In this document: piece by piece, positions 19,502 to 60,005 of the stretch | Layout of the letters: the number at the start of each line of letters is the position of its first letter | Numbering within the stretch: position 1 is the stretch's first letter | DNA from: Paraspadella gotoi | Lineage: Eukaryota > Animalia > Chaetognatha | Direction of reading: 5' to 3' | DNA: 64,000 bases | NCBI GenBank assembly: GCA_051294375.1 | Contig: JBJCIZ010000046.1 | Location: 1-64,000, forward strand | Notes under the pieces: generated by a model | Database searches by the model: none | What the model saw: only the letters and a program-made list of their open reading frames with translations | Told to the model about the DNA's origin: nothing | Program-made: the position numbers and the translations under genes

Positions 19502-21114
19502 CTATTCTGTTGGCCTTGTCTCATGCATTTTGAGGCGACGTCGATGATATCTGAGGTTTCGGCCAGCTATCGAGATGACGTAATGGTTGCCGTCATTCTC
19601 TACAACCTTATGAGGACCTGAATATATCCTTTTGACCTTGTTCTCGGTTGTTGCTGTTCCGGTCATGATCAGATCCCGTCTGGCCAGGACTAGATCGCCG
19701 ACCTTAATCTCTTCTGGTCGTCTGTAAGGGTTTCTTCTGGCCGATTGTTTGTATAGCTTTGTCCGCTGGTTCGCCAGCTGTGCTTGAGCTCTTTCTTGCT
19801 TGTCGGCCCTTTGTCTTATAAAGTCGATGAGATTCCTTTTAGTGAAGTCGTCGGCACTTTCCACTAATCTTGGCCTGTGGCCAAACTGGATTTCATGCGG
19901 TGACATGTCTGTCTTCCAGCCGATTATGGGGGTTGCATTTAGGAGTAGCATCAGGTGTGGCAGCTGTTCCAGCCATCTGTTTGGTTGATCGTCGACAGCT
20001 TTGCGTAGGGCTTGGCGGATTCGGCCTATGTCCCTCTCGGCCCTGTTGCTATCTTTCTGTCCTACAAGGACTCGCCTGCCTACTGTGTCAAGTAGATTTA
20101 ATATTGACTTCATTGCTGATCCGTTTAGTTGTGTTGCACCATCGAAATTTACTTCCATGTAGGCCCCATGTTGGAGAAAAATTTCTTTGTCGAGAGCTTT
20201 TACGATGGTCGTGGCATCTGCTCGACGTAGTGGGATTGCCCAGGTGTAGGCGAAAGCATTGTCTGATGCAACTAGAATGTAGATATGTCCAGCGACAGAG
20301 GAGAGATGCATGACATCGATGCTCAATGATTCCCAGGGTGCCATGGCCAGATTAGGAGCTGATGGGGTTTCATTGTGTCTTTGTGTGTCTGTTGCCTTAG
20401 CGCAATTATCACAGTTTCTGAGACATTTCACTGCGGCCGCTGATAGTCCGGGGGCTGAAACATATTGGGCAGTTATAAATGCCGTACGATCGTGGCCGGG
20501 ATGTCCAAAACGTTCGTGTAATTCTTTTGTGATAATTTCTGCTTTCTGGGCGGGTACGACGAATTTTTTTGTTGGTGTATTCGCCTTGAAACCTCTGATG
20601 ATGAGAATGTCGTTGTTTGTGACGTCGAGATCATCCAGACAATTTGACAAATATTTTTCAGTTTTTATTTTTTTCTTTTGCATTTTCTCGTTTAACTTTT
20701 GTTTGGGTTTTTTTCGCCGTCTCCTTCCTTGAGGGCGTCAATGACCAGTTTGAAGGAATTGTCCTCTGTTTGCCACTTTTTTATTTTGGTGGCGAGTGGG
20801 ACGAGGTTTGATTGCCTTTCTTGTGGTTGGGTAATTTCCATGGCAACCTCGGCTTCCGTGGTGTCGATGTCCGCCTCAAGGGTGCTGTCTGTCATGAGTT
20901 CATGATCGGTGCCTGTTTTTATCGCTTCTATTGTGTCAGAAACTTGAACGGGTGAAGTTGTGGGAGCTTCGACGTCTTTCGTGTCTAGCTGGATGTTTAC
21001 GAAATCCTGTGGGAGCGCGTCGATATGTCGGGTGTCTACCTTGGCGGTTCTGGGTCGTCCCCTGCGTTCGGGTTGTTTGAGCATATCAACTTTGATGGTT
21101 TGGATTGGCCCCAA
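19502..21114 (-). CDS. pol: Gypsy integrase (HHCC, DDE core, GPY/F-like tail), one frameshift near 20690
   Basis: HERFGHPG...CDNC; SIDVM, NFDGA, RAERDI; PHEIQFG; YSGPHKV. Confidence 0.9.
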
Positions 21115-21547
21115 GCTGATGGGTCGTAAGGGCGTTGACTGGTTTACGTCATTGACAAGGCTAACTTGTCTGGTAATGGTTCTGAAGATTTTCAGTGTTC
21201 TCTCGTATGTCGGGAGGCCATATACCCTTTCGAATTTGCAGCCTGTCTCCTTGGTCGAGCGTCCATCATGATTATGGTAATTTGAATCATTTCACTGAGG
21301 ATTTCCAGTTCGGGGTGGCCGAGACTCCAATCTTTGGTGGAAATTGTCCTGATGAAGGCATCAGCATCCTTGGTCTTGGGCTTGCCGTACAATTTTTCAA
21401 TGTTGGCTTTTTTTGTAAGAATTTTTGTCTTACGAATTCAAAAAATTTTGCCCTGAAGGATTTCGTGTCCTCGTTTAGTTCTTTGCTACTAATGCTAGTG
21501 TTGGGGCGTGTCCCGTGATGAGTTCTAGATGTTCTGGAGTTTCCTGG

Positions 21548-21995
21548 TCATAGAAGGGATTTTTCGGCGAAACCTGGTTCATACTCTCCTGTTACGTCGA
21601 ATCCCGCTGGGAAGAATGGAGTATCGAGGGGCGTCACTTGACCTTGATCAGTAAAACGGGTTAGAAAGTCAGCCGGGTTATCTTCGCTTTTAACGAGGAT
21701 AACCTCCTTGGGTTGGCATTCTTGTTTGATTTCCGTAATCACCTGAGTACGTTCGTGGGCAGTAGCTGTTGCCTGTCGTGTTGAAGATCCATCACCCTTT
21801 TGAAATATTGTGAAATCTGTGACGAGGGTGACGCTACGCCCACATGTGTAGCCCTTAAATTTTTGCACCATCATATTGAAGGCGAGTGTCTCCAGAATGT
21901 TGATATGTTTTATCCTGTATTCGTCTGGGAATGATTTTGAGTGGAAGGACAATGGATACTCGACGCCATCTGCGGTGGCGTGATTAAACCGCCCA
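21548..21995 (-). pseudogene. pol: Ty3/Gypsy RNase H domain (family B)
   Basis: YPLSFHSK...HINILETLA...LVTDF...SEDNPADFLTR. Confidence 0.85.
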
Positions 21996-21996
21996 T

Positions 21997-23830
21997 TAAG
22001 ATCGCCCTCTAATATAGTAAACGATTTATTAGGAAATCGTGCCTCGCAAAGAGTTCAATTTGAGGAAGAAGAAAAATTACATGAAGAAATATCTCTAGAC
22101 AAAACATTATTAGACTCCGCGCAAATGAGTTTAAAAGACCAATTTATGATGCTACAGAAAAGGGGGCTTGACGGAATTAGAAAAAAATTATTTCTCAAAA
22201 AAATCTGATTTATTTTTAACACCACCTTCGAAAATTAATTTTAAAGATCGTGATATTAATAATTCTGAACATGAAATAGAAAATAGAATAAGGAATTACA
22301 TTGCGATACGAAATGATAAAGCTGTAAACGGTTCTCAGTCACTAACATGCCCGTCTGGTCATTGTTTAGTTCCAACTGGAGGATGGATCCGAAAGCTGTT
22401 TGGATGTGTGATGTATGTGATGACCGTAACAGGGCATATACTATGCGGTATAATTGTTCATGTTGCGATTACGATGTTTGTTTTGAATGTTATAAGGCCA
22501 TTGAGTTTAGATGGCTAGCTTGGGAGCTCCTCTCGCTTTGATCGCTCATGTTCCGGTTTTCGTCGATGCGGAGGAATGCTTGTGGCTCATGCATCAGGAG
22601 ATCGTGCGGCGACGACAATTGGGGACGTGGGTGGGCGTGACCCAGAGGATCGCGAGGATGCAAGGGACAACGGCGGCGCGGCTGGGGCGGTGCAGGCGGC
22701 GCAGCTGGCGGCGACGATGATGACACGACGGCGAAATCGGTCTTGGATAAGGATGGTAAGAGATCGAGGTCACGGTCGTGATCAAAACCGTTCTCGTTCT
22801 TTCTCGCGAAAAAAATTACAGATCATTTCGTCTTAAAATGCTGGGGCAAATGAAAAAATATAATGGTCCTCCAGAAGATTTTCGTCAATGGTTCGATTTT
22901 TTAAAATTAGCGGCGGATTATTTAGAGCTAGAAGAAGCAGATAAACGGATTTTTTTTATTAAATAATATGGAACTCAAGGTCTAAAATCGGCAGTATTAG
23001 ATCAATTGCGTGAATACAATCATCTTTCATTTGAAGACGTCCGGCGTCAGGCTTGCCATTATGTTTGGAGCCAAGTCACGTGACTTGGTAGTGTCTGAAG
23101 TCGAAAACATTGAACGGCATGAGGGAGAAGCGATCGAGTCATTTGCTATTAGAGTCAGGGAAGCTCTGACGGCGCGGTACCTCGCTCATGCTGATGGTGA
23201 AAAAATGATAAGTCTTCATTGTTTGAGGAAGATAATTTGCTCTATTTTACAAGGGTTTAAGAAGTCAATTTTTACGAAAGTTGTTTATTAAAAAGGAGCA
23301 AAAACGGTCCGGGAAGCCATCATTGCCAATCCGTAAAGAATGGCGCAAGTTTCCAGGATTGAATGAGGCAGAGAGATGACATCGCATGGAACAAGGAGAA
23401 GGGCCAAATCAAGAACACACACACTGGGAAATTCTTTGTTAATTCCATTGCCAAAACACTTTGAGTCTGGAGAACTTTGATGATCAGGGTCATGCATTTG
23501 TCACATGAGGATGTGGTCAATCAGGTCAACTCGCGGCCGCTATCAATTTCAAAGAAACCCTGGAAGGGTATCTGGGGGGTGTGGTAATTGTGGTAAAACA
23601 TCTCATTTTAACAAAGATGATTGCCCTGCAAAGGGATGGTGTGTTGGGCTTGTAAAGGTGTTGGACACTTCGGAAAGTGGTGTCGAAAAGGAGTGACACC
23701 AGCACAAGTGGTAAGAAGTGAAAAAGTCTCGAGACAAAAGCTAAATGAGAGAAAAACGATCAATGCCATTAGTGATGGTGCAGTTCCGGTGGGATCATCT
23801 TCAGAAACGTCTGGATCCGAAACGATGTAA
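21997..23830 (+). pseudogene. gag: Gag with ZZ/C1-like zinc finger, capsid-like region and two zinc knuckles (frameshifted)
   Basis: CPSGH..WMCDVC..RYNCSCCDYDVCFECY (22347-22495); KYNGPPEDFRQWF; CGNCGKTSHFNKDDC and CWACKGVGHFGKWC (~23580-23685). Confidence 0.8.
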
Positions 23831-23836
23831 CTTTAG

Positions 23837-26800
23837 ATGAGAAGAAGTTCATTTAATAAAAGAAAAGATGGAAAATATAAAATAAAAAATAAAAATAAAA
23901 GAGTTAATGTAATACAAGAAGAGCAAGTGAATGCAGTTAGTAATTTACCATTTCTCCATGCTAATCTAATTGACCGGGATGGAAAAAGTTGTATGGCAAA
24001 AATTCTTGTTGATACCGGAGCTTCAGTGTCATTGGTGCATAAAGCCTTTTTAACCGTGGCAGATTGCTGTGCGATACCATTGATTATACTGCAGTGATTT
24101 CTGGCTTCGCAGGGCAGCCTGTGGCGACTAATCATAAAGTTTTATTAAAACTCGATTTGCCGGGATTGGGACAAACTAAAGATCTGGAATTTGTTCTATA
24201 TCATGGCAAGTTGGGATATGATGCAATTCTTGGTTTTGATTCGCAAAAAATACTAGATTTTAGTATAATATATAAACCAAAATTAAGTTTTATTTGTGGA
24301 AAAATTAAATTACCTGTTAAATCATATAATGATAATATTGAACAAAATAACTCTGAACAAGAGATACATTTGGTGCAACCTGCAGAGCCAATGATGAAAG
24401 TCAAGTTAATAATGCTTTAAATAATAATAAATCATTAACTGAAATTACTTAGTAAAAAATGATATATTTTTCCTACCAATTGGAATGTAGGAATTGCACA
24501 GTGGTATTATAAATTTAAATTATCAAAATCTTGGGTTCGAAAATGGGCTTAGATTGCAAAATAATGAAATAAATTTTGTACCTAAAAACTTGAGATCAGA
24601 ACAACTAAAAGCTATTCTTCATTTAAAATTTATTGGTAACAAAAATAATCGTTTATCAATACCACTTGGGGCAAATCTTGGGAATTGACACCGGGAAGTG
24701 AAGAAGTGGTCTCGAAATTCATGTGAATATGTGGATGGTCTTGAGGTTCGCGAGAAACTTGAAGCCGAGCTGACACTGTGTATGTTTTTGCTAAAAAAAC
24801 TATAGTGACGTCTCAGCAGTTGAACGAAGTGAAAGCGGCGCAGGAGAGAAGAAAAAATTGTGGACCCGTGATGAATTTGTGGACAAAACACAGTCCTGGC
24901 TAGCAAAAGTGCCGGAGAGGTTCCGTGACGACATTTTGGACATTATGATGGAATTTTCGAGGTATTTTTGCACGATATGGACGACCTTAAAGAGGGTGTT
25001 TTGGGATGGGAACTGGCTGCAAAGTTTCCGGGTGACTTGCACTGGGCTTCCAAGTACAAAGGCAGCAGTCCAACTGTCAGATTGTTGTGCAAGCGGAGCC
25101 AAGAAATCTTGGTGAGATGCGGAATCTTTGAACCTGCGGACAAGCCGGTCTTCGTACATCCATTCACAGTGGTTCCCAAGAAAGCAAAACTTTTCCCTGC
25201 AACCATTGAAGCCGCACAAGAAATGAGCGAACCTGTTTTCCTTGGAGCTGTCCGACCAATCACTGACTGCAGCTATCTAAATCGTTATACCAAAGATAGC
25301 ATGGCCTCTGTTGTTCCTGTTCTCACGAATATGTCTCTAAACTTAAATGTGATGCTTTGAGATCATTTGTAGATTTAACATCTCTTTTCATCAAATTAAT
25401 GTTTCAGCAGAAATTGATTCACATGGCTTTTGCCTAGGGATTTATTTGGCATGCATTCTTACCTAACTGGGTATCAATTTCTTCGGGCTTGCAAGGTCCT
25501 AATGGGTTTAGCAAATGGAAGTTTGTGTGGCAGGAGAGTATTTAAATCTATAGCTGATAAAGTAGGGGCTGTCCCTGTCAGCTGTTCTTTTGAAGATTCA
25601 AGAAAGCTATTCCTAGGGTTGATGCTGGTAAGTTTGTAGCTGAATTTAAAGACATAGGAGAGGATGTAGTTGAATCATTTATAGATGATGTATTCTTGCA
25701 AACATTAAGAGATTGTCATCTTATAAATTAAAAGAAAAAAGTTTTTATAAAAAGCCTAGTAAGATCAAGATGCTATTTACTATTTGCACTTAAGGCCTGC
25801 GATCATTCAAACAAGAATTGCATAAAGTTTTTTTACAATCTGTTATTTATACCAAAGGAAGTGTATTCCCTTCACGTTTCAAAAAAAAAAACTCTAAATT
25901 TGATTAAGGTTCAACTTCAAGAGGCAACTAAAAATCGGGCAATTTTTTTTATCAGTAAACCTTTTAAATTTCATCCAACACGGTAAAGTCATTTTAAACG
26001 CAAAATTTTTTTATTTTTTTTTAATTAACAGCACCTACCTCAGTGTAATACTAACAACTAAAACCAAGTCATTCCAATTATGTTATAGAAATCAATTAAT
26101 GATGAAAACATAAACGTTTATGTAGAGAGAGAGCAAAACGCTATATTAAGGTGTCTATTATCATTTTATTACAAAAAAGAATGATTAAAATTGTAAAATT
26201 TAAAGACATTCATCCACTGGCATCTGAAGTAGGGTCCACTTTGATAACAACCCTCAATGGTGCCATAGATGCCACAGATTCCACAGACGGACCAGCCTCA
26301 TGCTCTGCTTTTGAAATTTAGTTTCTGTTCCCCAGGTTCAAAACTGGTTCAAAACAAGACTGAGAAAAAAATAAATAAACACTTTGCAGCATTTCCTCCT
26401 GTTTACTGACTGCTTTTCCCCAGCCACAGCCATTTGTTAATAAAAAAAAATTGGACAAAATTTGGAATAAAACTTTAAAGATCGGTAAAGCAATCATTTA
26501 AACTGGAAATGAAAATAGATTTTGGAAAAGCGTATCGATTTTAAAGTTCTTTGCTCGAACTTTCAGTTTTTGTAAAATCTACAGAAAAAAAAATTAAAAA
26601 ATAAAATAAATAAACAAAAAGAATTGGAGCTAAAACTGTTTGAAATAAAAATAAATCTAAAATATATTTTTATAAGTATGGAAAGGTGGAAAAAATTCTA
26701 TGAGAGGGATTTCGAAAAATGTTACTAGTTTTCAAGATATTTAGAATTTAATGCCAAAATTTTCTTATTCTTTTTTTTTCTTATGAAGATAAGTGAATTT

Positions 26801-29800
26801 GAAAAAATCCCTCTCATAGAATTGGGACCCTTGTCCTCAAGTAAATTTATGTAAAATTTCATGAAAATCCGCTTAGCCGTTTGGCCACAACTCTTCCAAA
26901 AGGTTTCTTTTATTTTATATAGTATTATAAATTCGAAAAAACAGCAATGGAATTCGAAGAGAAAGAAAAAAGGGAATACATTTTCAGAATCATCTGGACC
27001 TCTACTTTCCGAATATAAGCTTTTTTTTAATCCTAATTATAACTTTTGGCCAGTGATCCCAGGCCTTAAAGCGTTTTGATTGTAAAATTTTTTACTTTTT
27101 CGTCTCGACGACGTACCCTATAATGAAGAGATGAACGAAAGCGATACTCTAAAAGCGAATGAAAAAGATTCCATTTCATGACATACTAGAATCCCCGGAG
27201 ACAAAACACGGAAACAAATTGGTTGTACAAGATCGAATTCATCGTCCACGGCGGCCGGAGTGGAAGAGGTAGATCGCCCATACCAAGATACAGAATGAGA
27301 GGAACACAAACAACTACAACGCGGAACAAAACGCCTATCAATGGGAACTTCAGGATATGTGTTGGGCCAAACACCGCCGCCGCACTCAAAATCCAAAGTA
27401 AAATTCATCTTATGCTTTAAGGAAACAGCTGATGTTGTTTGTATACCAGAAAAAAAGTTGCAGATACTTAAAGAATTTCCTAGACCGGATTCGGTTAGAA
27501 GTTTACAAAAATTTATAGGATTCTGTAATTTTTTTTCCTTGTTGTTAAGAAATTCTAAAGTTTTATTTGCTCCTTTATTAAGATTGTTAAGAAAAGATTC
27601 ATCTTATAAATGGGAAGACGAGCATGAAAAGGCTTTTCAAGAAATCAAAAGAAGACTGTCGCAGCAACTGTTGGTTGGTTTTGTTAGGATGTTGGACAAG
27701 AGACACGAATCAGAACTTTTGTGTTATGTTGACTGGAGTAAAGATGCAGGAGCGGCTTCAGCTGTAGTTTATGTAAAAGATTATAAAACAAAAACCATCC
27801 AATTAGCTTATTTTTGGAGCCGTTTGCTTAGCGACACCTTTGTCAATAAACCACCTTATTTATGTGAAGTGGCGGCAGTCACAATGTTCTTGCTCTCAAA
27901 TAGGATGTTATTGCTAGGGAGTTTGATACATATTTACACTGATAATATGGTAGGGGCTTCATTACTAAGACAAAGATTACGTGCGGTGGAGTTTACAACT
28001 TTACCTATTTTGCATCGCTTATTAATGTCTATTTCAATGATACCTTTTACTGTTAGTTATGTTAACACTGATTCAAACCCCAGCGATCTTACCTGAGCAG
28101 AATTAAAATCCAAGAATCTATGTCGGATGATGAGATACTGATCGTCCATTGAGTCCCGGGGATTTAGACATAGTTGACAAGGAAATTACATCATTATCAT
28201 CCACTGTTGAAGAATATTTCCGTTGTCATACTAAAAATGATGAAATGATGGTTAGTCAGGAGACAGAAGTGTGGGACAAAGCAGTATGCGAAAAAAGTAT
28301 GAAGACTCACATTTTTTTTCCGCGGAAGATGAGTTGCAGCAATCATGATGTTGCTGGTTGCTGAGACTACAAACAGTTTGCCTGAAAAATTGAATGAAAA
28401 AAAGAATGGGATTAGCTGGGATGAAAATAATTTCTTGGTCTAAACATCCTAATGCGAAATAAAATTTGAGATTTAAATCATAAATTAAAATTTAAATGTT
28501 AAAATTATTTGAAGAATCCGTTGAGGATAAGTTAATTAATAATTATCACTATACTAGTAACCATTCAGATCTTATTCATTATTTAATGGGCGGAACAAAA
28601 GTTAAATGAATTTAATGATAATTTTCAATATAAGACAAGGTTAGAATCCTTATTTGTATGTACAAGGCCTGAGTTGGTGATGCATCTACTGTCAACTTCT
28701 GATGGAATGGTTGATGCTGATGTTCTTATCTCACGTCAATTGATGGCTTACCATTTCAAGAATTAAATGTGATAACGGAAATTCTTAAAAACAAAAAGGG
28801 GATGGATACCGACGCTCCACCTCTCTTTGATTCTGTTGAAGAACTGCAGCGCTTTGTCGCAGAACTCGAACTGAGCCCAATGGTTGATGGAAAATTCAAG
28901 TACCTTAAAGAAGTGCAATCTAGAAATGACGGTTTCTCTACAATGATTCGTCTATTGCAAGGTGAACGGCCTGATGATCGGAAATCAAATTATCTAAAGC
29001 AGATGGACAAGCTTTTCTGGAATCTTGAGCAGAACAAGTCTCTTTTGTTTGATTAAAGAGGGTTGCTGTTTAAGTGAGATTTCCAAAAGGTGGGTGAAGT
29101 GATAAATTACCAAACTTGTGTTGCTGAAGGTGATGCCAGTGAGAAAAATTATCTCAATTCACTCTCAAACCCACTTTGGGATTGCATTCACTTACACAAT
29201 TTTTTTGTCGGGATTATTTTACCTTGGGAGCCTACAAAAAATATTATGATGCAGTGGTTGCTTGTCCATTGTGTGGCCAAATGAGATCAAAGCGAAAGAT
29301 TGAAGAATTTTCCTGGAACACGCAGTTGACCTACAGTGCTTGGAACATTGACCATAAAGGACCACTGAGTGGAGGTTCCGGATCTGCGCCCTATTACATT
29401 CTTTGTGCAGTGGAACAGAACATCCGTTGGTCGTTTTTCTGTGGCAAGAGACACCTCGGCTAGGACAACGGCAAAATTGTTGTTTGACAGAGTGTTGGCT
29501 TGCTACGGAGGTGCGACCGAGTTTGTTTCTGACAGAGGGGCTGGTTTTGTGTCGGAATTATCAAATGGTTGTTCTTACTCGGTAGCCAGAGACACCGCGT
29601 GACGAGTAGCTATCGACCATGTGCAAATGTGGCTGAAAACTTTGCTGTTCGTAAGCTAAGTTCCTCAATGAAATTTCTTTTATTCAATAAAAATCCTTCA
29701 GAATTAAGAGAAAATTTATCTTTTTCAATTTATGTTAAATGGATCTTGCTTACATCCGTTACGGGAATGACTCCTTTGAAGAGTTCTTTTTTCGTGACGC

Positions 29801-30479
29801 TTCTTATTTTCATCCTCTTTTAATTAAAAATAAAACGGTTTCAATAGATAAATTTCTAACGGATCGTTTGGAAAAAATGAGAAAAATTATTGCAACATTG
29901 CGCGAAAAATATGATATTTACTATTCTGAAAGAGTCCCTGCATTTTGTACAGTAAACTCAGAAAAACTTAAAATTGGTGAGAATGTTTGGGTTAAGATTT
30001 TCGCAGCGAAACGACATTTAAGATATCTTAAATCGGTTTTACCGAAATATCGTTTAGCTAAAATTACTAAAATAGTCTCACCAGTCAGTTTGATTCTCGA
30101 GGAGTTATCGACGGGAAGAACCATTTCACGACATATTGTTGATGTATTTAAACTGTCACCGACATCTTCTTTTGTCAATGTTTATATTGATACTAAATCT
30201 GCACGAATCCGCGAGTTGGAAGATTTTGCGGGTGACAACGTTTTTCGTTCAAAAAATTTAAATGAATTGGGCGACGATAAAGAAAAAGTTTAAGATGCTG
30301 GTTTGGAAAATGTAAGATTAAAATTAAATGGAGATTTCTCAGAAGTAAAAGCAGCTGATTCGGCTGCGTCGCAGCGTCGTGATGTTTCAACGGACGGAGC
30401 AAGGATCGGGAGAACAAAAGACGGGGCTCGTGATCGGTATGAGTTGAGGCCTCGAAAACATGTTAATTATAAAATCTAA
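23837..30479 (+). pseudogene. pol: Pol: aspartic protease, RT, RNase H, integrase; frameshifted and interrupted
   Basis: ILVDTGASVSLV and AILGFD; RPITDCSYLN; FIDD 25678-25689; SLQKFIGFCNFF; YVDWSKD/LCE/YTDN; CPLC, IDHKGPL, SDRGAGF; ends YELRPRKHVNYKI*. Confidence 0.88.
25794..27065. mobile_element. Non-autonomous DNA transposon with TTAA flanks, Kolobok-like
   Basis: TTAA|GGCCTGCGATCA ... TGATCCCAGGCC|TTAA (11/12 inverted match); GG..CC termini with TTAA fit Kolobok rather than piggyBac; absent from the 14244-18750 copy. Confidence 0.75.
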
Positions 30480-30688
30480 AATTTTCTTGTCTCGTTAATT
30501 CATTCATTCGTTCTTTCATCTATTGGTCAATCTCATCTCATCGTAATTTGGCTTGTTTGTTTTCAGTTGTTTGTTTTGTCCGCTAGCAAACTTTTAATAT
30601 TTTTGTAAAATACCTAAACTTTTGCTGGGGGCCATGATAGTGGTTAATTGATTTGATTAGCAAATTATGTTTGATGACATAAAACGAA

Positions 30689-30785
30689 AATAAACATACT
30701 AACTAAATATGTATGTTTTGTAACATACAAACAAATAAACATGCTAACTAAATATGTATGTTTTGGAACATACAAACAAAAATAA
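30689..30785. repeat. ~44-bp tandem duplication between the convergent pol and antisense stop codons
   Basis: aaataaacat(a/g)ctaactaaatatgtatgttttg(t/g)aacatacaaac occurs twice; also present at ~55845-55945. Confidence 0.7.
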
Positions 30786-30823
30786 ACTATCTAAACTGGA
30801 AAAAAGAAAAAAAACACGCTACA

Positions 30824-32035
30824 TTAAGTGACATTGAGTTCGACGGCGTCGAGGAGATCGGCGATGACACGGACGACATCGGCGTCGGTTTGGTCGTCGT
30901 CGTAGTCGTCGTCGTTGTCGCAAGTTAGGCGACGAAAGTCGATGAGGATCGGGAGCCCGTCCCCATCGATGATATGGTGAAATTCATACTGAAAAATTAA
31001 AGACAAAAAATTTGTACTGAAAACTGAGAATTAAAATTTAATATTAAAATCGGAAAACTCTGAGACTTTGATATAGATTCACTTACGCTCGCAACGTCAG
31101 AAGTAGGCGAGGGCGGCATCAGTGGCGACGGCGGCGGCGAAGGCGTAGTGGAGCGGGACCATCGTTGGTAATGGCTGCTGCTGCGATTGCTGCTTCTGCG
31201 GCTGTAGCGCCTCTTGCGGTCGAGGCGGCGTCTGAGACGGCGACGTAGGAATAGTTTGTAGACTGGAATATTAATTGCGGTTATATAAATATATAAAAGG
31301 AATCAAAATTCTTACAGTATTGTATTTTAATAAAAGGAACAGAAAAACGGACTTTTTATTTAGAACTAACAGAATCGGAGCGTCATCATGATGATGATGA
31401 CGACGATTGCCAGGGAGATGCCGGCCAGCGAGAATGACGCTGGAGCGACGACGGCAGCCATAGTGGGCCTTGCTGCCCTGGTTGGCAGAATGGGCGTCGT
31501 TGTTATTTTTGTTGTTGTTGTTGTCGACGTGGCCCTGGTTGGCAGAAAAAACTTTGACGACGTTATCGTCGTCGTCGTTGTAGTCGTCAACGTTTTCGTC
31601 ACGGATGGAATCAATTTTGACACCGGGACATTTGTTGTCGTGGTTGTAGTTGTTGTCATTTCACTGATTGGAAAATCAATAATGAAGGCGTTAAAGTTAA
31701 GTAAACTGGTTGGTTGTAAACCATTTACTAAATATTGCCCGAAAATGAAAATGTGCGCTCTAGAAAATCGAAATTGAAGAGAGAAAAGGTATCGACCTTG
31801 ATTGATTTTTTCCAGTGGTTGTCTCCACATTCGTCAAGTTGACAACGGACCCTGAGCTGGATGATGGACCCTTTGGACGACGCGTTGGGAGGCGTACGGA
31901 GCCTTGCCTCGGCGTTGCCATGGTGCGCCCCCCACCGCTAAGGTGGTTGATGAGGCGGGCGTGGCCATTGGTGGGCGTCGTAAGATGTGACATTGGATAA
32001 GGAAGGCGAAATTTGGGTGAGACAGCGTCAGACAT
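30824..32035 (-). CDS. Antisense spliced gene in family A: Thr-rich single-pass membrane protein (~322 aa); exons 32035-31797, 31759-31371, 31262-31087, 30988-30824
   Basis: GT-AG introns of 37, 108 and 98 nt join into one 969-nt stop-free frame. The two 3' introns are well supported. The 37-nt intron (weak donor GTCGAT) and the start codon are tentative. Confidence 0.75.
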
Positions 32036-32864
32036 TGCACTTTAGTAAGGACCGCCTTGGTGTTCAGGCTCGGCCAACATCACTGTGCGCGATGAAAGTG
32101 CGTCGCCCGTACGAACCAGAGTTGCAAGTTGGATTGTGGACGGATTGAACTGAGTTGTGCGTGGTGTCACAAGGCAAAAGTCTAATGTAGTACTCTGGTA
32201 CAAGGTGAGCCCTGGGAGCGAATTCACTTAGTGCTTGGCGTTTGCGGTCATTAGAAGCGGCGAAATCTCCGTGTGTACAATTTTAGATTTGGAATTTTGA
32301 CGGAAAATATTTTTTGTGGGAAAAAATATTGTTGCAATTTACAAAGTTTGATTATTATTGAAAAAAAAATATAAAATAATTATACTAGAAATTTGGTGAA
32401 AGAAGTTACTTACTTTTTGTGTTGGGCACCATTTTCGTCGTTGATCACTTGTGAGAGTGGATCAGTTTGTGGCTTGGAGGAAAACCAAGTGAAGCCCGCT
32501 TTGCTAGTGACCTTAACTTACCTAACCTTTGTTTTCTTTAGCCGACGGTGGTCAGAGATTTCGTTCTGTGACGCGGTGAAAAATAAAAGTTGTCGACAAA
32601 CATTGAAAAAATAAAAATAAATAAAAAACGAAATATTTCGTTGTTGGGTTTTTAAGCAGAGAGCGGTGATTTGAGGGGAACAAAAGCCTGGGGGCCAGGT
32701 TAGCTGAGTTCAGAACTATTGTTAAGTTGAGGGAGAAGAGCCCGTCTGTGGATAAGTAATGAAATTTAGTTAGTTTCCTAAGTTGTTCTGAAACGATGAG
32801 TGTTGTTAGTGAAACAATAGCATCGTGTACGATTTTAGGATAGAACGTTTTGTTTTTTTCACAG

Positions 32865-33418
32865 ATCGTCAGTACATAGTCATGTTAGCGTCGCTATGGG
32901 CGTTGGCGTGGCACGAATCCGTCATCTTCCTGGACGGGTTGCCGTGGGATCGCGACCAGGGCCAATCCTTGGTGTAGATGGCACTGATGGTTTCTGATTG
33001 CAATTAATTTATTACCTTCCTTTTATCTGATTATATTGTACATTATAAAAATGGCGGGGACAATGATGGGGCTGCCTGCATGTCGAGGTTAGAAAAGGGA
33101 CTGAACAGCACATTTCTGACTTAATAGTGAGCTTCTACAGTACAGTAATGAATTGATAGAGACACGTTATTACCTGAAAAATTTTGACAAATTGGAAAAG
33201 AGAGCTATATCGCGGGAGTTTTGCGCTTCTTTTGGGGATTGCAAATGCTTTTGCCACGGGTATTCATGTGGTTAATTCTAACATTCAATATAACACTTGA
33301 ACATAGGCTAAATTTAATTGGCAACTTTGTTGAAAAGTTTTTTTCAAATCAGGTTCAACTGAATGAAAATATAAACTTCTTGTCAGACAGGACATGTTTG
33401 GGGTGCATGTGAATCTTA
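32865..33418 (+). pseudogene. env: Family A env, 5' part, truncated
   Basis: Follows acceptor gttttgtttttttcacAG (32864); near-identical to 58022-58585. Confidence 0.7.
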
Positions 33419-38860: not shown

Positions 38861-39282
38861 ACTTATCATCATCGATGTCCTTAAATCTGGGTTAGGACAG
38901 TTTATTAAATATGTTTTGCTTATACATTTTATCCAAAACAAACAAATATCCTCTATTTTATTTATTCTCCTTCTCTCTCTCTCTCTCCACTCTCTCTCTC
39001 TCCTACATCCGTCCCTAGTTCTCCTATTGCAACCTTGCGACCATCTTTATCTTTTTAAGATTTGCTTTAACTGCATCGATTTTTTTCACACTTAATAATT
39101 AATTAATTAATTAATTAAAACATTTATTAGTAATCCATTAATATCTAAAGATTCAATTTGTAAAATGTGACTTATGTTTCTTNNNNNNNNNNNNNNNNNN
39201 NNNNNNNNNNNNNNNNNNNNNNNNNNNNNNNNNNNNNNNNNNNNNNNNNNNNNNNNNNNNNNNNNNNNNNNNNNNNNNNNNN

Positions 39283-42200
39283 GCCTATGTCCAAACTGGA
39301 TCTCATGAGGAGACATTTCTGTCTTCCAGCCTATGATGGGCGTGGCGTTCAGCAGCAACATTAAGTGAGGGAGGTGATCCAGCCATTTTCTCGGTTGGTC
39401 CTCAACAGCTTTACGGAGGGCTTGACGTATTCTGCCGATGTCCCTCTCTGCCCTATTACTGTCCTTTCTCCCAACTAAGACTCTTCTGCCAACTGTGTCG
39501 AGCAGGTCCAGTATGGAGCTCATTGCCTTTCCGTTTAGTTGTGTTGCGCCATCAAAGTTAACTTCCATATAAGAGCCGTGCTGGAGGAAGATCCTTTCAT
39601 CTAGTGCTTTCACGATCGTTTNNNNNNNNNNGCGGCGTAGTGGGATAGCCCACGTGTATGCAGATGCATTGTCAGATGCAACTAAGGCATAGTTAAATCC
39701 AGCTACTGGGGGAAGATGCATTACATCGATGCTCAGTGATTCCCATGGAGTGATGGCTAAATTTGGAGCTGACGGAGTTTCATTGTTTCTCTGTGCATCA
39801 GTAGCTTTTGCGCAGTTATCACAGTTTCTTACACATCTTGCTGCGGCGGCCGATAACCCTGGTGCTGTGACATATTGAGCTGATATAAATGCTGTGCGAT
39901 CGCGGCCGGGGTGTCCATAATGTTGATGTATTTTTCTTATTATCTCTTCGATTCTACTAGGTGGAACAACGAACTTTGTGGTTGGGTTATCTGCTTTATA
40001 ACCTTTTAATATCANNNNNNNNNNTTCAGTTATGTCAAGATCAGCGAGGACGTTTGTAAGGTACTTTTCGGTTAAAGTCTTTCTTTTTTGCATTTTTTCA
40101 TTTAGCATTCTCTCGGCGTTAGCCCGGTCATTTTGTTGCAAGGCCTTTATGACGATTTTGAATACCTCGTCTTCCTGTTGCCATTGTCTAACGTGTGTCG
40201 CTAATGGCATGAGTTTTATTTCTATCTTGTCAGGATTCGCTGCTTCCTCTGCTATTTCTGGGGCTGAGGCGTCGACGTCTGCCTCCATTGTGCTGTCGAT
40301 CATTAACTCTTCTTTTGCGCCGGGCCATTTCGATTGAATTGTTTGCACTGAGGCTTGTTGAGTTGTTGTGATTGGCGTTGGTGGCGTTCTTGCGTCGTTT
40401 GGTTCTGGCATCTCTACATGGACTAAGTCCTCTGGCAACGCCTCCCAGCGATGGCTGGCGATCTTTTGTTTCTTTGGTCTTCCTCTCAGCTCTGGTTTTC
40501 TCAGATTCTCTACGCTGATTGTCTGGATGTTCTCATTTGCTGGGCGTATGAGAGGCGTGTCGGATTTTCGCGACTGATGAGACTGACTTGTCCAGTTATG
40601 GTTCTAAATATTTTTATTCGTCGACGTGGTCGGTCGGTCCGTATGTCTTTCAAACTTACACCCGGCCTCTCGTGTCGAGTCCTCTTCCATCATTGTGATT
40701 GCGATGCCTGTCATTTCGCCTAACATTTCAGTTCTGGATGGCCTAAACTCCAGTCTTAGGCAGATATTGTTCTGACGAAGGCGTCAGCGTCCTTCGTCTT
40801 TGGTTTCCCATACAACTTTTCTATGTTCTTTTGATTGATGCAAATTTTTGTCGTACAAATTCGAAAAACTTTGTTCTGAAAGCTTTTTGTTCCTCTCCCA
40901 GTGTTTGGGCCACCAAGGCAAGAGTGGGTGCATGGCCTGTTATTAAATCTAGATGTTCTGGGGTCACGTGATCTTGTACTGGGTTTTCGGCAAATCCTGG
41001 TTCATAATCGCCGTCGACATCGAAGCCGGCGGGGAAAAAAATGGGTGTCGAGGGGTGTGACCTGTCCTTGCTCAGTGAATCGTGTTAAGAAGTCGGCCGG
41101 ATTGTCTTCGCTTTTCACTAGGATAATTTCTTTGGTTGGCATTCTTGCCGGATTTCCGTTATCCATCTTAAGACGTTTGTCGGGAGCATTTGTTGTCGGT
41201 CATGCTGTAGATCATCTTTACTCTTTTAAAGTATTGGGAATCAGTTACTAAGGTCACCCTTCTCCGCACGTGTACCCTTGAACTTTCGCACCATCATGTT
41301 AAAGGCCAGGGTTTCTAAAGACATTGATGTGCTTTGATCGGTATTCTTCGGGGAATGATTGAGTGAAATGAGAGCGGATATTCGACGCCGTCGGCTGTGG
41401 CGGTGATTAATCCGCCCATGGCGCTGGTACTAGCGTCCGCGTAAATTCGATAGAACCATTCTTGATTCTGGCATCATAAAAAGTTTAACTGGGCAAGCCT
41501 TGATTTCGTCAACAAGGGTTGGAGCATCTCGATTGTGTTCGGAGAGCTTGAAATCTTTTCTTGTCGGTAAGGTTAGGGCATGAAGGGGTTGGGCGATGTA
41601 AGAAAATCGATGCGTAAAGCATCTGTATAGTTTAAGGAAGCTAGCATTGCTCTTAGTTCCTTTTGCGTTTTGAGAGCTTAGCTTTAACTCGACTGCTTGA
41701 AGCTTTTCTTTTTGTGGGAGGAGCCTGCTTTTGGAGATGCTGAACCCAGTATCTTGATGTCTTCCTTTCTGAGGAGGACACTCTTCTTCCCATTTGAGGA
41801 CGACGTTTTCGTCTCGGCATCTCTGCAGTAGATCTCTGAGTCTCTGTGCCATGTCTTCGGGTGACTTGGCTGTGAGTATGANNNNNNNNNNNNNNNNNNN
41901 NNNNNNNNNNNNNNNNNNNNNNNNNNNNNNNNNNNNNNNNNNNNNNNNNNNNNNNNNNNNNNNNNNNNNNNNNNNNNNNNNNNNNNNNNNNNNNNNNNNN
42001 NNNNNNNNNNNNNNNNNNNNNNNNNNNNNNNNNNNNNNNNNNNNNNNNNNNNNNNNNNNNNNNNNNNNNNNNNNNNNNNNNNNNNNNNNNNNNNNNNNNN
42101 NNNNNNNNNNNNNNNNNNNNNNNNNNNNNNNNNNNNNNNNNNNNNNNNNNNNNNNNNNNNNNNNNNNNNNNNNNNNNNNNNNNNNNNNNNNNNNNNNNNN

Positions 42201-43694
42201 NNNNNNNNNNNNNNNNNNNNNNNNNNGGTGGAAACATGCCAGAATGTCGACGGAACATTGCAGTTCATGTGGCTTGTATTGCTCAAGGATTGAGGAGATT
42301 GTCTGTGGTTCCGTGGCGTATGNNNNNNNNNNNNNNNNNNNNNNNNNNNNNNNNNNNNNNNNNNNNNNNNNNNNNNNNNNNNNNNNNNNNNNNNNNNNNN
42401 NNNNNNNNNNNNNNNNNNNNNNNNNNNNNNNNNNNNNNNNNNNNNNNNNNNNNNNNNNNNNNNNNNNNNNNNNNNNNNNNNNNNNNNNNNNNNNNNNNNN
42501 NNNNNNNNNNNNNNNNNNNNNNNNNNNNNNNNNNNNNNNNNNNNNNNNNNNNNNNNNNNNNNNNNNNNNNNNNNNNNNNNNNNNNNNNNNNNNNNNNNNN
42601 NNNNNNNNNNNNNNNNNNNNNNNNNNNNNNNNNNNNNNNNNNNNNNNNNNNNNNNNNNNNNNNNNNNNNNNNNNNNNNNCCCACACAATTTCCCAGACTA
42701 GGTGAGCCTTGTCTTGGAGAGACGGGTCTACGTCTTTGAAGGGTTTTAGGAATGCTTCCTTTCCGCTGGTGCGTCATGTTTTTGGCGCCTGTCTTGGCCT
42801 GGCTTCTCCTCGACTGCTTTGATCTCTTCTTTCCGTTGGTTTTGTGATGAACTATCTAGTCGTGGCGGGGATATGGTCTTTTCTCACTTCCTGGTACGGG
42901 TTTTTCCTGTTAAGTCGCCGCCTGGACTGGGTTCGGCTGTGGATCCTGTTTCAAGTCCTAGTTCGGATCTTGCCTGATTGGTTATTAGAGGTTCTTGCCT
43001 GTGCCCCAGGGTCCTGGATGGGCGTACAAATTCAACTCCTTCTCTCAGTTGGTCCCGTCTGCGACGATGTGCTTCTCTCCATTCCTGGACTCGATTATCC
43101 ACCTGGTACTGGCCAGGGTTTTCCAATATGGTTTATAGTGGAGGTTAGTATGATCCTTCCCTCCGCGTTTTGTTCGCGTGAATCGGCCACCATGTGTGTG
43201 TTCATCCACGTTTTCCCGAGCAGCAACCATCTGGCAGCCTTCAAGGCCTCGTATTTGTCTCGGAACAAGTGGGTTACGGGCTTTTTCCCATGGAGGCGAC
43301 CTGGAGGTCGTGTCTTTGGTTAGATGGTTGTACTACCCACAATTGGTCTGGAGGCCCGGGGTTGGTGACTGCCGTTCCTATGATGATGTCGTCTGATCAT
43401 TCCTCATCCGCGGAGATACAACGTTTTTAGGGTCCATTTTTGGAACATGATTCTTAAGTTTATTCTTCTGGTGAGAGTGATGGTTCCAGTGGCTGTTGAC
43501 AGCCTGAGAGGGGTTCCGTGGTAAATGTGTTTCGACAAGGCCCATTTTTCGATGAACTTTCGTGGGACAGTGTTTACGGATGCCCCTGTATCATACAGGC
43601 AGCTTGCTGGTGCTCCTGCGATTACAGCTGGAATGTAGCTGTTTTTCCTCTGTGTGACATATTTTTGCGGTGTCGTCTCTGGGCTCAGGTCCAC
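39283..43694 (-). pseudogene. pol: Family B pol (frameshifted, gapped)
   Basis: DTG protease; VDILACFH and ILTAKSPEDMAQRL (RT); HQHYGHPG..CDNC, SIDVM, NFDGA, RAERDI (integrase). Confidence 0.85.
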
Positions 43695-43699
43695 TTTTT

Positions 43700-45934: not shown

Positions 45935-46006
45935 CTTTCCTTGAGGGGTGGGCGTGGTCGTTGTTTTGGTAAGGCTTGATTCTTCTTTTCTTGGAGAAGT
46001 GGGGTG

Positions 46007-46027
46007 TCGAATCCACTCCTGTCACCA
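46007..46027 (-). promoter_or_regulatory. Primer-binding site, tRNA-Leu-like
   Basis: TGGTGACAGGAGTGGATTCGA resembles the complement of a tRNA-Leu 3' end (..TCGAATCCCACTCCTG.CACCA), directly inside the LTR. Confidence 0.7.
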
Positions 46028-46029
46028 CA

Positions 46030-46378
46030 TTTAAGTAAATAGACAGGGTTTTGAACGTGAAACCAAAGTGGAATTTATTGATATAAAAACAGATATGAAG
46101 ACGGTGTCAATTTTGGACAGAATGATCAACTACAAAATTCTACATCTATTTATACAGAGCAAGTGGATCAGAGACGTGGGTAAATTTTACAGCCTCTTCG
46201 CTCATTGGCCGCTTCCATTTGAGTCTCGGCCAATCAGAGAGCTCGATTCCTTTTTGGTAATTTCTTCCCGAGCCTCCGATCCGGTTCCATCTCTGTATCA
46301 GAGAGCTCGATTCCATTTCGGTGATTTCTCCTCGAGCTTCTGATCCGGTTCCAGCTCTGTATCTCCTGTGATGATACA
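46030..46378 (-). mobile_element. 5' LTR of family B copy 2
   Basis: Begins TGTATCA; internal short direct repeats; CCAAT, TATAAAT (~46150) and AATAAA (~46075); adjacent PBS. No clean CA end. Confidence 0.7.
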
Positions 46379-52830: not shown

Positions 52831-52899
52831 TCATACACGTGCAGTAAGGGTTCTATACTAACAGCAGCGGCGTTTACTGCCTCCGGCTGCTGGCTTGGC

Positions 52900-55982: not shown

Positions 55983-57184
55983 TTAAGTGACATTGAGTTC
56001 GACGGCGACAAGGAGATCGGCGACGACATGGACGACATCGGCGTCGGTTTGGTCGTCGTCGTCGTAGTCGCAAGGTAGGCGACGAAAGTCGATGAGGATC
56101 GGGAGCCCGTCCCCATCGATGATATGGTGAAATTCATACTGGAAAAGTAAAGACAAAAAAAATTTGTACTGAAAAACAGAATTAAAATTTAATATTAAAG
56201 TCGGAAAACTCTGATTGGGCGACTTTGATATAGATTCACTTACGCTCGCAACGTCAGAAGTAGGCGAGGGCGGCATCAGTGGCGATGGCGGCGGCGAAGG
56301 CGTAGTGGAGCGAGACCGTCATTGGCAATGGCTGCTGCTGCGATTGCTGCTTCTGCGGCTGTAGCGCCTCTTGCGGTCGAGGTGGCGTCCGAGACGGCGA
56401 CGTAGGAATAGTTTGTAGACTGGAATATTAATTGCGGTTATATAAATATATAAAAGGAATCAAAATTCTTAGTATTATATTTTAATAAAAAGGACAGAAA
56501 ACCGGACTTTTTATTTAAAACTAACAGAATCAGAGCATCATCAGAATGAGGATGACGACGACGATTGCCAGGGAGATGCCGGCCAACGAAAATGACGCTG
56601 GAGCGACGACGCCAGCCATAGTGGGCCTTGCTGCCCTTGTTAGCAGAATGGGCGTCGTTGTTATTCTTGTTGTTGTTGTTGTCGACGTGGCCCTTGTTGG
56701 CAGAAAAAATTTTGGCGACAATTTCGTCGTCGTCGTCGTCAACGTTTTCGTCACGGATGGAATTGACGTTGATACCGAGACATTTGTTGTCGTGGTAGTA
56801 GTTGTCGTTTCACTGATTGGAAAATCAACAATGAAGGCGTTAAAGTTAAGTAAACTGGTTGGTTGTAAACCATTTACAAAATATTGCCCGAAAATGAAAA
56901 TGTGCGCTCTAGAAAATCGAAATTGAAGAGAGAAGAGGTATCGACCTTGATTGATTTTTTCCAGTGGTTGTCTCCACATTCATCGAGTCGACAATGGACC
57001 CTGAGCGGGACGATGGGCCCTTTGGATGACGCGTTGGGAGGCGTACGGAGCCTTGCGTCGGCGTTGCCATGGTACGCCCCCGACCGCTAAGTTGGTTAAT
57101 GAGGCGGGCGTTGCCATTGGTGGGCGTCGTAAGATCTGACATCGGATTAGGAAGGCGAAATTTGGGTGAGACAGCGTCAGACAT
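55983..57184 (-). pseudogene. Family A antisense spliced gene, copy 3; exons 57184-56946, 56908-56526, 56419-56244, 56138-55983
   Basis: Same splice sites as copy 2; introns 37, 106 and 105 nt; a CGA>TGA stop at 56530-56532. Confidence 0.75.
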
Positions 57185-58021: not shown

Positions 58022-59660
58022 ATCGTCAAGTACATAGTCATGTTAGCGTCGCTCATGGGCGTTGGCGTGGCACGAATCCGTCATCTTCCTGGACGGAGTT
58101 GCCGTGGGATCGCGACCAGTGGCCAATCCCTTGGTGTAGATGGCACTGATGGGTTTCTGATTGCAATTAATTTATTACCTTCCTTTTATCTGATTATATT
58201 GTACATTATAAAAATGGCGGGGACAATGATGGGGCTGCCTGCATGTCGAGGTTAGAAAAGGGACTGAACAGCACATTTGCTGACTTACATAGTGAGCTTT
58301 ACAGTACAGTAATGAATTGAAGAGACACGTTATTACCTGAAAAATTTTGACAAATTGGAAAAGAGAGCATATCGGCGGGAGTTTTGCGCTTCTTTTGGGG
58401 ATTGCAAATGCTTTTGCCACGGGTATTCATGTGGTTAATTCTAACATTCAATATAACCATCTTGAACATAGGCTAAATTTAATTGGCAACTTTGTTGAAA
58501 AAGTTTTTTCAAATCAGGTTCAACTGAATGAAAATTAAACTTCTGTCAGACAGTCAGGACATGTTTGGGGTGCATGTGAATCTTATGGAAGGCATGTCAA
58601 TCATCTTAAGGTATTACACTCTTGTGATGTACTTGAGGTTGGCGCTCATGTAATAGCGGGAAGGCTTGTTTCTGATGGTTCGCGATAAAGAGTGCTGTGT
58701 ATGGACGTATTGACGCATGAGCTACTTGACTATGACCATTTACGGGATTTGACTACGAATGATGTTTTGCAGGAAACTATCTTTCAGGTTAGCCCAAGCA
58801 TGTTATATGATTACGCTAGGATTGACATGATTTCTTATGCTGACGGTAATTTATTATTATTGTGTAATTTTCCTAGAATAACTAAAGAATATGTTTTTAA
58901 TGTTTTTCAATTGCTGCAAAGCCCTGTTGAAATACAGTTTGAAGAAAGTAATGACGGAAGAGTTTTTTAATTCTTGACAACTAAAGATGTTTCTCTAGAT
59001 GATTTAACTACAGGGAATGTTACATTTTATTCATCTTCAAGCTGTATAACGAATAACCGAAGTTAGAGCTTGCCCAGGTGGGCCATCTGTTATTAACATA
59101 TGTTCAGTATTTTTACATTCGTTACTTATGAAATGAGGGCCTGCAGCAGTGAATTGTCATGTTAAACATATAAGCTTGATGAAAAGGTTATTCTATAAAT
59201 GTTCATGGGGAGTCATGCTGTATTAGATTTTGAATATTTGTTTAACTGATTTAATACAACTGATTTCCTGTCATTCATGAAATTGTCTATTCAGAAATAC
59301 AGATCATCACTCATGTGTTTTTTTGACCCCTGATCCCAATGTTTCATTGTTGTCTGAATCTGAAGGTATTATACATTGTTTTCTCCTATGCCTATGTTAC
59401 TTATGATCATCCGAAATTGAATGTTATTTTGAATTTTTCACATATTGTAAATTTATCTTTGCCAACTTGATTCGTCTCATGTTTTTAAACCAATTGTGTT
59501 TCCGGATACCAAAATTTTTCATAAATTCGAAGAACGGAACTGGTTATATGGTAATTTCATTGTTTGTCATTATTGGGTTTCTCTTCATTGTCGTTGCTTA
59601 TCTTGTTTATTACGTTAAATTAGAACTATTCGTGTGAGAGTCGGAAGTATCCTACTGGTG
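58022..59660 (+). pseudogene. env: Envelope-like glycoprotein, probable class I (F-type) fusion protein; frameshifted
   Basis: Acceptor tttttttcacAG at 58021; hydrophobic N-terminus; EKR followed by a fusion-peptide-like ALLLGIANAFATGI and a heptad-like segment; Cys-containing region; TM YMVISLFVIIGFLFIVVAYLVYY (~59545-59613). Fold is inferred. Confidence 0.7.
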
Positions 59661-59679
59661 TTTGAGTGCCATTTTATAG

Positions 59680-60005
59680 GGGCCATATAATTTGAAATGG
59701 ATAAATATGAAATATGGTTTAATGAAAAGATTTAGGCTGTTAATCGTACCAGCAGCCTTCATGGTTAGCGCGTGGCGTTGCTGGATTGGAGTAGCTTCAT
59801 TAACTAGTATAAAAGCGGCCCCTCAAGCGCTATCTTTTGCTCCATCCTCTCTCCGCGCTCATCTTCTGCCTACAAGCTCCTGCCTCTCACACGGTAAGTG
59901 ACCCCAAACCGTACATTCTCTATTTACATATACTATGAGCTAGAAGATATTCATTGGACTCTAATGGTTCACGTTGCTAGTAAGTTAGACTATCTATTAT
60001 TTACT
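59680..60005 (+). promoter_or_regulatory. Candidate 3' LTR of family A
   Basis: Last segment shared with copy 1 (2300-2650, which ends ..TACA); ATTGG ~59785, TATAAAAG 59808, donor G|GTAAGT 59894. No 5' LTR in the window to confirm. Confidence 0.45.

Follow-up and report, generated by a model that had tools for sequence, protein, structure and literature searches.

The window, by which we mean the whole 64-kb stretch of DNA that was analysed, carries on its + strand gag-like, protease, RT-like, RNase H and integrase pieces of a retroelement, which were recognized from about 22500 to the pol stop codon at 30477-30479 (Table 1). The order of the pol domains of this focal copy (PR-RT-RNase H-IN) is that of Ty3/Gypsy elements, and its frames are broken. 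A weak rve match (E 0.095) was found at 29400-29600, directly upstream of the integrase C-terminal part, and a word-index protein search gave three distant matches (23-29% identity) for the RNase H. Between the RT and the RNase H lies about 1.3 kb of AT-rich DNA without a pol-like frame (25800-27100), which is probably a secondary insertion. Directly upstream of gag, a Cys-rich, C1/ZZ-like zinc-finger frame was observed at 22330-22540 (+); its Pfam matches (C1_2, E 0.016; ZZ, E 0.17) both fall short of the cut-off, and it is possibly a second accessory domain of the same element. The end of pol and the start of a downstream env are separated by a gap of about 2,385 nt, which holds, on the - strand, the putative spliced gene considered here.

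Self-comparison of the window revealed related segments in one orientation at 2289-7922, 12410-14218 and 14248-18479, and in the opposite orientation at 27417-33418 and 55303-60016. All copies are truncated or interrupted, and because no paired LTRs or target-site duplications were found within the window by self-BLAST, the local copies cannot be counted as independent transpositions. A stretch after the env of the last copy (59646-60013), near the end of its similarity to the copy at 2289, begins with AGT and ends with ACT; it may be the 3' LTR, of which a partner was not found in the window. Positions 1-103 of the window are a reverse-oriented piece of the env 3' region (98% to 59483-59583) and represent a further copy at the window edge. 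Other LTR elements are nested around the family at 19505-22054, 39110-46100 and 50716-54426 (-); the first and the last of them gave integrase and RT Pfam matches, and no env was seen in the ORF list for any of the three. Host exons with Kazal and laminin-EGF domains occupy 60200-62300 (+), in a gene that we take to be agrin-like, and the element cluster lies beside or within that gene.

The env gene was recognized in the focal copy and, in a longer form, in the second copy (Table 1). The query for the homolog search was a 253-codon stretch of the second copy, with X at stops, and it was searched against 1.84 billion proteins. Fifteen aligned homologs of about 460-545 aa have a dibasic site, a hydrophobic peptide, heptad helices, conserved Cys residues and a C-terminal TM segment. 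The best homolog, which is 29% identical and was modelled by AF2 in place of the window's own broken env, gave a model (pLDDT 73.9) with 241 Foldseek matches at E<=0.001, the top one being RSV F (E 4.6e-12); the F proteins of RSV, hPIV3, HMPV, NDV and henipavirus were included, and the matches listed were all F proteins. Judged by its homologs, the env is of the F type, with a class I fold, cleavage site, fusion peptide and TM anchor. None of the 12 homologs scanned matched a Pfam family, the env gave no match in the word-index protein search and no significant match in PDB sequence searches, and cluster look-ups for 20 of the 40 homologs returned one name only, that of a cephalopod hypothetical protein. 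Several of the homologs are encoded on contigs of 7-14 kb.

A strong splice acceptor stands directly before env, at 32864 in the focal copy, where it is the top-ranking + strand site, and at 58021 in the second copy. Ahead of env, strong + strand splice signals occur in both readable copies (donors at 32205 and at 32699, acceptors at 32541 and at 32864); at 32205-32864 they suggest that the env leader is spliced more than once or that an internal promoter faces the antisense gene. In the comparison of 32414-32864 with 57562-58021, 0.3% substitutions yet seven indels were counted, and the antisense exons differ by 4-9% in substitutions; the low divergence of 32414-32864 reflects either an assembly artefact or recent gene conversion. 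A - strand frame at 32555-32884 was considered as a second antisense gene and rejected: it shares sequence with the env leader and matched no Pfam family. Viral contigs gave no usable relative with flanking sequence. A related metagenome locus (L001), which extends 122 nt beyond env on the upstream side, likewise shows an acceptor-like site right before env; env is followed there, as read by eye, by an LTR-like stretch and a new ORF. This ORF (2177-3231 of that locus) is long, Ser/Thr/Pro-rich, in sense orientation and provided with terminal repeats, and it is probably the first ORF of that related element.

Table 1. Positions of the element's genes and of the features of the proposed antisense gene in the window
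Feature	Position	Strand	Basis or remark
Protease	near 24010	+	DTGA motif
RT-like segments	24900-25700	+	by eye, without Pfam match
RT connection/RNase H of pol	27299..28093	+	Pfam RT_RNaseH_2, E 4.4e-7
Integrase C-terminal part, pol end	29739..30479	+	one internal stop in focal copy
ATTAAA, candidate poly(A) signal	30593..30598	-	about 225 nt after stop
Exon 4: acidic cluster, C-terminal amphipathic helix (predicted), stop	30824..30988	-	periodicity p 2e-13, C3 0.64
Intron 3, 98 nt	30989..31086	-	GC 23%; GTAAGT..TTTCAG; AT-rich island 31085-30969
Exon 3: aromatic-polybasic juxtamembrane part, R/S-rich, then Pro/Ser-rich linker	31087..31262	-	
Intron 2, 108 nt	31263..31370	-	GC 23%; contains in-frame stops; GTTAG..TTCCAG; AT-rich island 31375-31250
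Predicted TM helix	31378..31458	-	one peak; Kyte-Doolittle mean over 19 residues up to 2.6
Thr-rich stalk, predicted O-glycosylated ectodomain	31470..31663	-	periodicity p 5e-19
Alternative intron 1, 133 nt	31664..31796	-	same phase; frame stays open, 290 aa
Intron 1 of earlier model, 37 nt, doubtful	31760..31796	-	non-consensus donor, rank 16/122
Exon 1 of earlier model, coding or 5' leader	31797..32035	-	open 79 codons from ATG 32035, two readable copies
AT-rich island beginning GTAAGT (32413)	32276..32418	-	donor rank 2/122; without clear acceptor
5' part of F-type env, truncated and frameshifted	32865..33418	+	tblastn of env homologs
Second readable antisense copy	55983..57184	-	two in-frame stops
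Longer, broken F-type env of second copy	58022..59640	+	40 HMMER matches, E<=0.001

Splice model and coding signal of the proposed antisense gene

An earlier note on this DNA had proposed a four-exon gene on the - strand. Its GT..AG introns (31796-31760, 31370-31263 and 31086-30989) were confirmed on the sequence, and the joined exons of 239, 389, 176 and 165 nt indeed gave one frame of 969 nt (322 aa) whose sole stop is terminal. The described parts of the product were likewise present, namely a poly-Thr stalk, one hydrophobic helix, a basic segment, a Pro/Ser linker and an acidic tail. As a gene model, the proposal stood for exons 2b-4 with introns 2 and 3, but not for the N-terminal third, which comprises exon 1 and the 37-nt intron.

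AT-rich islands were placed by a two-state GC segmentation that was blind to splice sites. In both readable copies, AT-rich, T-rich islands coincided with introns 2 and 3, their ends lying within 1-20 nt of the intron borders. When bases were shuffled inside the blocks, introns 2 and 3 both arose by chance in none of 20,000 shuffles with windows of 5, 10 and 15 nt, and in 25 of 20,000 with a window of 20 nt and looser motifs; these tests are generous because the motifs were set knowing the real sites. With splice-site scoring matrices, intron 3 scored well (donor ranked 5th of 122 GT sites, acceptor 8/98) and intron 2 modestly (donor 25/122, acceptor 38/98). The poly-T tract before the AG of intron 3 was longer in the noisy copies. 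Splicing at the intron-2 junction places the helix beside the basic cluster. ATTAAA was found 216-240 nt past the stop in all five copies, in an AT-rich context in which a chance occurrence is possible.

Codon periodicity was detected in the TM segment (p 1e-5) and exon 3 (p 0.006) as well as in the stalk and exon 4 (Table 1), and introns 2 and 3 showed none (p 0.99 and 0.65). The values of the stalk and exon 4, but not that of the TM segment, are inflated by triplet repeats. GC3 was 0.69-0.78 in the TM segment, exon 3 and exon 4, near that of two host exons (0.83 and 0.92) and unlike that of pol and env (0.26-0.31). The Thr codons in 31371-31663 were mixed (ACG 13, ACA 12, ACT 3, ACC 3).

Triplet repeats create periodicity by themselves, and the region could accordingly be read as GC-rich triplet repeats alternating with AT-rich DNA, with chance splice sites or a non-coding RNA and no protein-coding antisense gene. 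In a variant of this reading, the stalk belongs to another frame: in the two copies, an Asn/Asp frame (RNY 0.69) stays open over 129 and 123 codons, and a Val-rich + strand frame that mirrors the stalk (31370-31774 and 56525-56923) over 135 and 133 codons. The Val-rich frame is likely the antisense shadow of the Thr codons. That exon 1 looks non-coding also fits a region without a gene. However, the TM segment, which is free of repeats, is periodic with a GC3 of 0.78 in the model frame, the shuffle tests of introns 2 and 3 argue against chance splice sites, and the helix, the positive-inside cluster and the stop that closes the last GC-rich block share one frame across the junctions. The reading without a protein-coding gene is therefore held to be improbable.

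The 5' third of the gene was less well defined. Exon 1 showed no 3-nt periodicity (p 0.55), no frame of it stood out by substitutions or third-base bias, and one of its three frames was open in 19% of 20,000 shuffles. The 37-nt intron sits in a 168-nt AT-rich island (31811-31644) that also spans the first 96 nt of 'exon 2'. The 133 nt of the alternative intron 1 had no periodicity (p 0.47); against this intron, the same interval is merely 2.3% diverged and without an indel between the copies. A 65-nt version (31728-31664) would fit another frame, and the unspliced frame through intron 1 contains one stop per readable copy, at different codons, a model without intron 1 being likewise possible. 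Later in-frame starts are the ATG at 31659 (209 aa), which is absent from the second copy, and the ATG at 31461 (143 aa), which has a strong context and lies 8 codons before the helix. The 37-nt intron has no better fit than the 133-nt one or a later start. The island beginning with GTAAGT (Table 1) possibly marks an upstream intron or upstream exons of the antisense transcript at 32276-32418; the sequence beyond about 32080 is error-prone. A 152-aa frame at 5414-5869, considered as an extra upstream exon, was rejected as a noisy fill duplicating adjacent sequence.

The 3' two-thirds of the gene model are likely right, and the sequence signals argue that the locus very probably contains a real spliced antisense gene.

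Copies of the proposed antisense gene and their divergence

The exon lengths reported earlier for the second readable copy (239, 383, 176 and 156 nt) were reproduced, as were the differences of -2 and +7 nt in introns 2 and 3 and the retention of the splice dinucleotides (intron 2 measures 106 nt, with GT/AG kept). Two in-frame stops, at aa 206 and 241 of 318 (the latter in exon 3), were absent from that account. The cassette had also been described as occurring in all five copies: the whole or part of it does lie beside the pol end in 5/5, in both orientations, but only two copies are readable throughout. Env flanks the cassette in 3/5. In the copy at 5881-7231, exon 2 consists mostly of N letters, which also cover parts of exons 1 and 3 and intron 3; the copies near 12410-12870 and 14250-14945 lack their 5' part and are fills next to N gaps, riddled with insertions. 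Because these two share variants with the first, about three haplotypes are represented. It is probable that the antisense gene is a regular part of this element family.

The claim that exon indels preserve the frame was correct in that all of them are triplet indels, but three of the four lie in or beside triplet repeats, and at such repeats slippage by 3n is to be expected even without selection. In the stretch that was clean enough for copy comparison (30175-32035), non-triplet indels numbered 0 in the 634 nt of exons 2b-4 versus 5 in the 547 nt of introns 2 and 3 and the 3' spacer (Fisher p 0.021); with all 969 exon nt set against the same 5 in 547 nt, p was 0.006. Exon 3 had no indel in three haplotypes. 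Non-CpG divergence was 1.6% in exon 3 and 2.9% in exon 4 versus 4.7-6.1% in introns 2 and 3 and the 3' spacer, and within the clean stretch, divergence was highest in the stalk with the TM segment (9.1%). The env gene (11 non-triplet indels in 536 nt) was discarded as a neutral indel control; its contrast is unusable because env, spacer and pol show one-sided single-base insertions with near-zero substitutions, as is typical of long-read error.

Purifying selection was not detectable between the two readable copies, for which pN/pS was 0.78 (17 synonymous, 39 nonsynonymous; Fisher p 0.43). Exons 3 and 4 gave 1.47 against the third haplotype (3 synonymous, 13 nonsynonymous) and the pol tail gave 0.30-0.66 with equally small counts; all of these counts are small, and the copy pairs are not independent. 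From the sequence comparison, past coding by exons 2b-4 is well supported.

Coding in the past would also be expected of a passenger, that is, a host gene fragment that was captured antisense once and whose inherited introns and coding marks now drift without service to the element. The host-like GC3, both pN/pS values, the two stops in the second copy, the lack of a homolog in other elements and the poorly defined 5' end are in line with such an origin. However, dead copies drift after insertion regardless of the master element, and disordered proteins tolerate substitutions. Non-triplet indels, of which five occur in the neighbouring non-coding DNA, are missing from exons 2b-4, the splice dinucleotides and the stop codon are all kept in the readable copies, and 2.4 kb of useless cargo would be expected to be lost. 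Although a decaying passenger is the main rival reading, we consider it rather unlikely, and the balance leans towards an antisense gene that is useful to the element.

Predicted protein and its possible role at the membrane

No Pfam family was matched by the 360-aa antisense read-through or by exon 4, none of 5,115 candidates for the read-through reached E<=0.01 in the word-index protein search, and there was no usable homolog of the 155-aa exon-2 frame in Atlas, and viral contigs held no homolog either. Because of the low complexity and the limits of the word-index search, this absence of homologs is weak evidence of uniqueness.

Two K/R were counted in the 15 residues before the helix and 14 in the 25 after it, and the predicted topology is therefore N-out/C-in. 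None of the models has a signal peptide (over the first 35 aa of the long forms, 8-residue hydropathy peaks at 0.47), from which a type III reverse signal-anchor, like that of glycophorin C, would follow; such an anchor favours a short ectodomain, or else an upstream exon is missing. Depending on the start and the model, the stretch that precedes the helix measures 8, 74, 155 or 187 residues. Along the tail, a basic part gives way to a Pro/Ser-rich one and then to an acidic one that ends in a predicted amphipathic helix; this helix of exon 4 has the highest hydrophobic moment of the C-terminal 143 aa. The single Cys lies in the tail, and there is no folded head. The product may belong with membrane mucins and glycophorin-like proteins, which carry a Ser/Thr-rich, O-glycosylated ectodomain before a TM helix; S+T is 47% in the 74 residues before its helix, and its O-glycosylation is a prediction. 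Our best guess from the predicted anatomy is an accessory surface protein in the wider sense.

In the mechanism that we propose, intron-containing, host-like DNA would have been captured in reverse by a Ty3/Gypsy element with an F-type env. The introns would survive reverse transcription because antisense splice and poly(A) signals go unread on the genomic RNA, and a promoter of its own, in the 0.8-kb gap towards env, would drive the gene's transcription. The helix would act as a reverse signal-anchor (type III) with N-out/C-in orientation, to which forms initiated close to the stalk (209 or 143 aa) would be no less suited than the 322-aa form. Outside the cell would project the O-glycosylated stalk, the basic, Pro/Ser and acidic-amphipathic tail would bind lipids, capsid or sorting adaptors inside, and the product may organise or shield the membrane sites where F-bearing particles bud or cross between cells. 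To this reading as a whole, in which the spliced antisense gene encodes a single-pass N-out glycoprotein that acts as a membrane accessory in F-driven spread, we assign a probability of roughly 0.4. Should the gene be useful to the element, the membrane role, as suggested by the anatomy, would be likely.

Part of this anatomy is shared with the sORF2/FAST-like proteins of insect MDG1-group elements, which in the available text of their description are accessory, single-pass and N-out, with a polybasic patch and an amphipathic tail helix (10.1101/2025.03.14.642691). A short form starting at ATG 31461 could act in the same way and promote direct cell-to-cell passage of capsids. Its start, in a strong context just before the helix, would suit this, and its aromatic residues, polybasic patch, Pro-rich part and amphipathic helix are features of sORF2/FAST, its 143 aa lying within the 80-200 aa given for FAST in the available text (10.1101/2025.03.14.642691). 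A single TM helix, a polybasic patch and an amphipathic tail helix were thus found, but neither an MGxxxS/T myristoylation motif (no in-frame ATG has Gly next to it) nor an ectodomain of 10-50 aa. The same text gives sORF2 as 63-107 aa, mostly myristoylated, env-less and with an ectodomain of about 30 aa (10.1101/2025.03.14.642691), whereas the ectodomain here would be 8 aa or at least 74 aa and the focal gene is antisense, spliced and placed beside env in an element with F. The short form also leaves the in-frame, mixed-codon Thr stalk unexplained. We give a capsid-passing short form little credence.

The earlier note had further compared the product with the mucin-like pneumovirus G, a receptor-binding partner of F. 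The env homolog does fold like RSV, HMPV and hPIV3 F, and the Thr-rich stalk and TM segment lie head to head beside env. The comparison nevertheless proved a poor fit: pneumovirus G is N-in (type II) with a central cysteine noose, whereas the antisense product is predicted to be N-out and has one Cys in its tail and no folded head. An intron-bearing gene cannot derive directly from a cytoplasmic RNA virus, which also counts against a G-like partner, and because codon use differs, the antisense gene and env probably did not come from one virus together. A G-like attachment partner is therefore regarded as very improbable. A bolder form of the preferred reading, in which F and a head-to-head captured, intron-containing host mucin-like gene make up a two-glycoprotein envelope module whose second product is packaged or displayed with F, appears unlikely.

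Comparison with other elements and implications

Ty3/gypsy elements with an F-type env (errantiviruses) are widespread in metazoans (Chary and Hayashi, eLife 2026, PMC13524379). In the available text of that article they share with the focal element the gag-pol-env order and an env with a dibasic cleavage site, fusion peptide, heptad helices, TM segment and paramyxovirus-F fold; the focal element differs in its 2.4-kb pol-env gap with an antisense spliced gene. An accessory, opposite-strand, fourth or extra ORF is not mentioned in the available main text (PMC13524379), whose automated filter allowed a pol-env gap of at most 500-1000 nt, with manual extension for some groups. Because of this filter, the focal layout could be under-sampled there.

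Antisense genes are known from other retroelements, and HBZ of HTLV-1 is a spliced one. As far as the available text of the sources goes, additional antisense ORFs lying in the interval from pol to the 3' LTR occur in maize Grande (gene23), rice RIRE2, Retand (TRP28 ORFs) and Botrytis Boty (brtn) (PMC7264820, PMC11963269, PMC8365987), and an own promoter was shown for gene23 (PMC7264820). Their placement, antisense to gag-pol and downstream of pol, is also found here. In those accounts the plant and fungal elements have no F env and their products are nuclear or predicted to bind DNA, whereas here an animal element would encode a predicted membrane glycoprotein. An internal env promoter in the pol-env gap is described for Tor4b (PMC4402516); together with gene23 it offers a precedent for the promoter proposed here. 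HIV-1 ASP is described as antisense, membrane-associated, present on virions and reported to enhance entry (PMC12568219), and in function it is a forerunner for entry being helped by a membrane protein encoded antisense; it differs in that it overlaps env and arose by overprinting, whereas the focal gene has its own interval, introns and host-like codons.

Captured accessory ORFs, some with TM segments, are also found in bdelloid rotifer LTR elements, one lineage of which has a paramyxovirus-type F, but the available text does not mention an antisense or intron-bearing form of their ORF3 (PMC5408684). CERV of C. elegans Cer1 is a spliced accessory gene of an animal Gypsy-type element, but is described, in the available part of the source, as a sense-strand gene for a nuclear protein (PMC10309623), and extra ORFs are described in planarian elements as well (PMC6431247). 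Searches of open PubMed Central and bioRxiv turned up no animal Gypsy element reported to carry a spliced antisense gene for a membrane protein.

The mechanism by which most errantiviruses move between cells is given as unknown in the available text on them (PMC13524379). Their descriptions give a simple gag-pol-env organization, to which a membrane-protein gene that is antisense, spliced and next to F would add an accessory gene of a kind not found reported for animal Gypsy elements in open PubMed Central and bioRxiv. The weight of the present case, a gene predicted from sequence, is limited by the two readable copies and the absence of homologs. If real, the gene would show how such elements can retain entire genes together with their introns, and it would escape surveys that insist on a short pol-env gap and on unspliced sense ORFs. 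If the two-glycoprotein module were true, the antisense slot between pol and env would be a general dock for intron-bearing accessory genes in animal Gypsy elements, and with such a dock these elements would be complex retroviruses in their own right.
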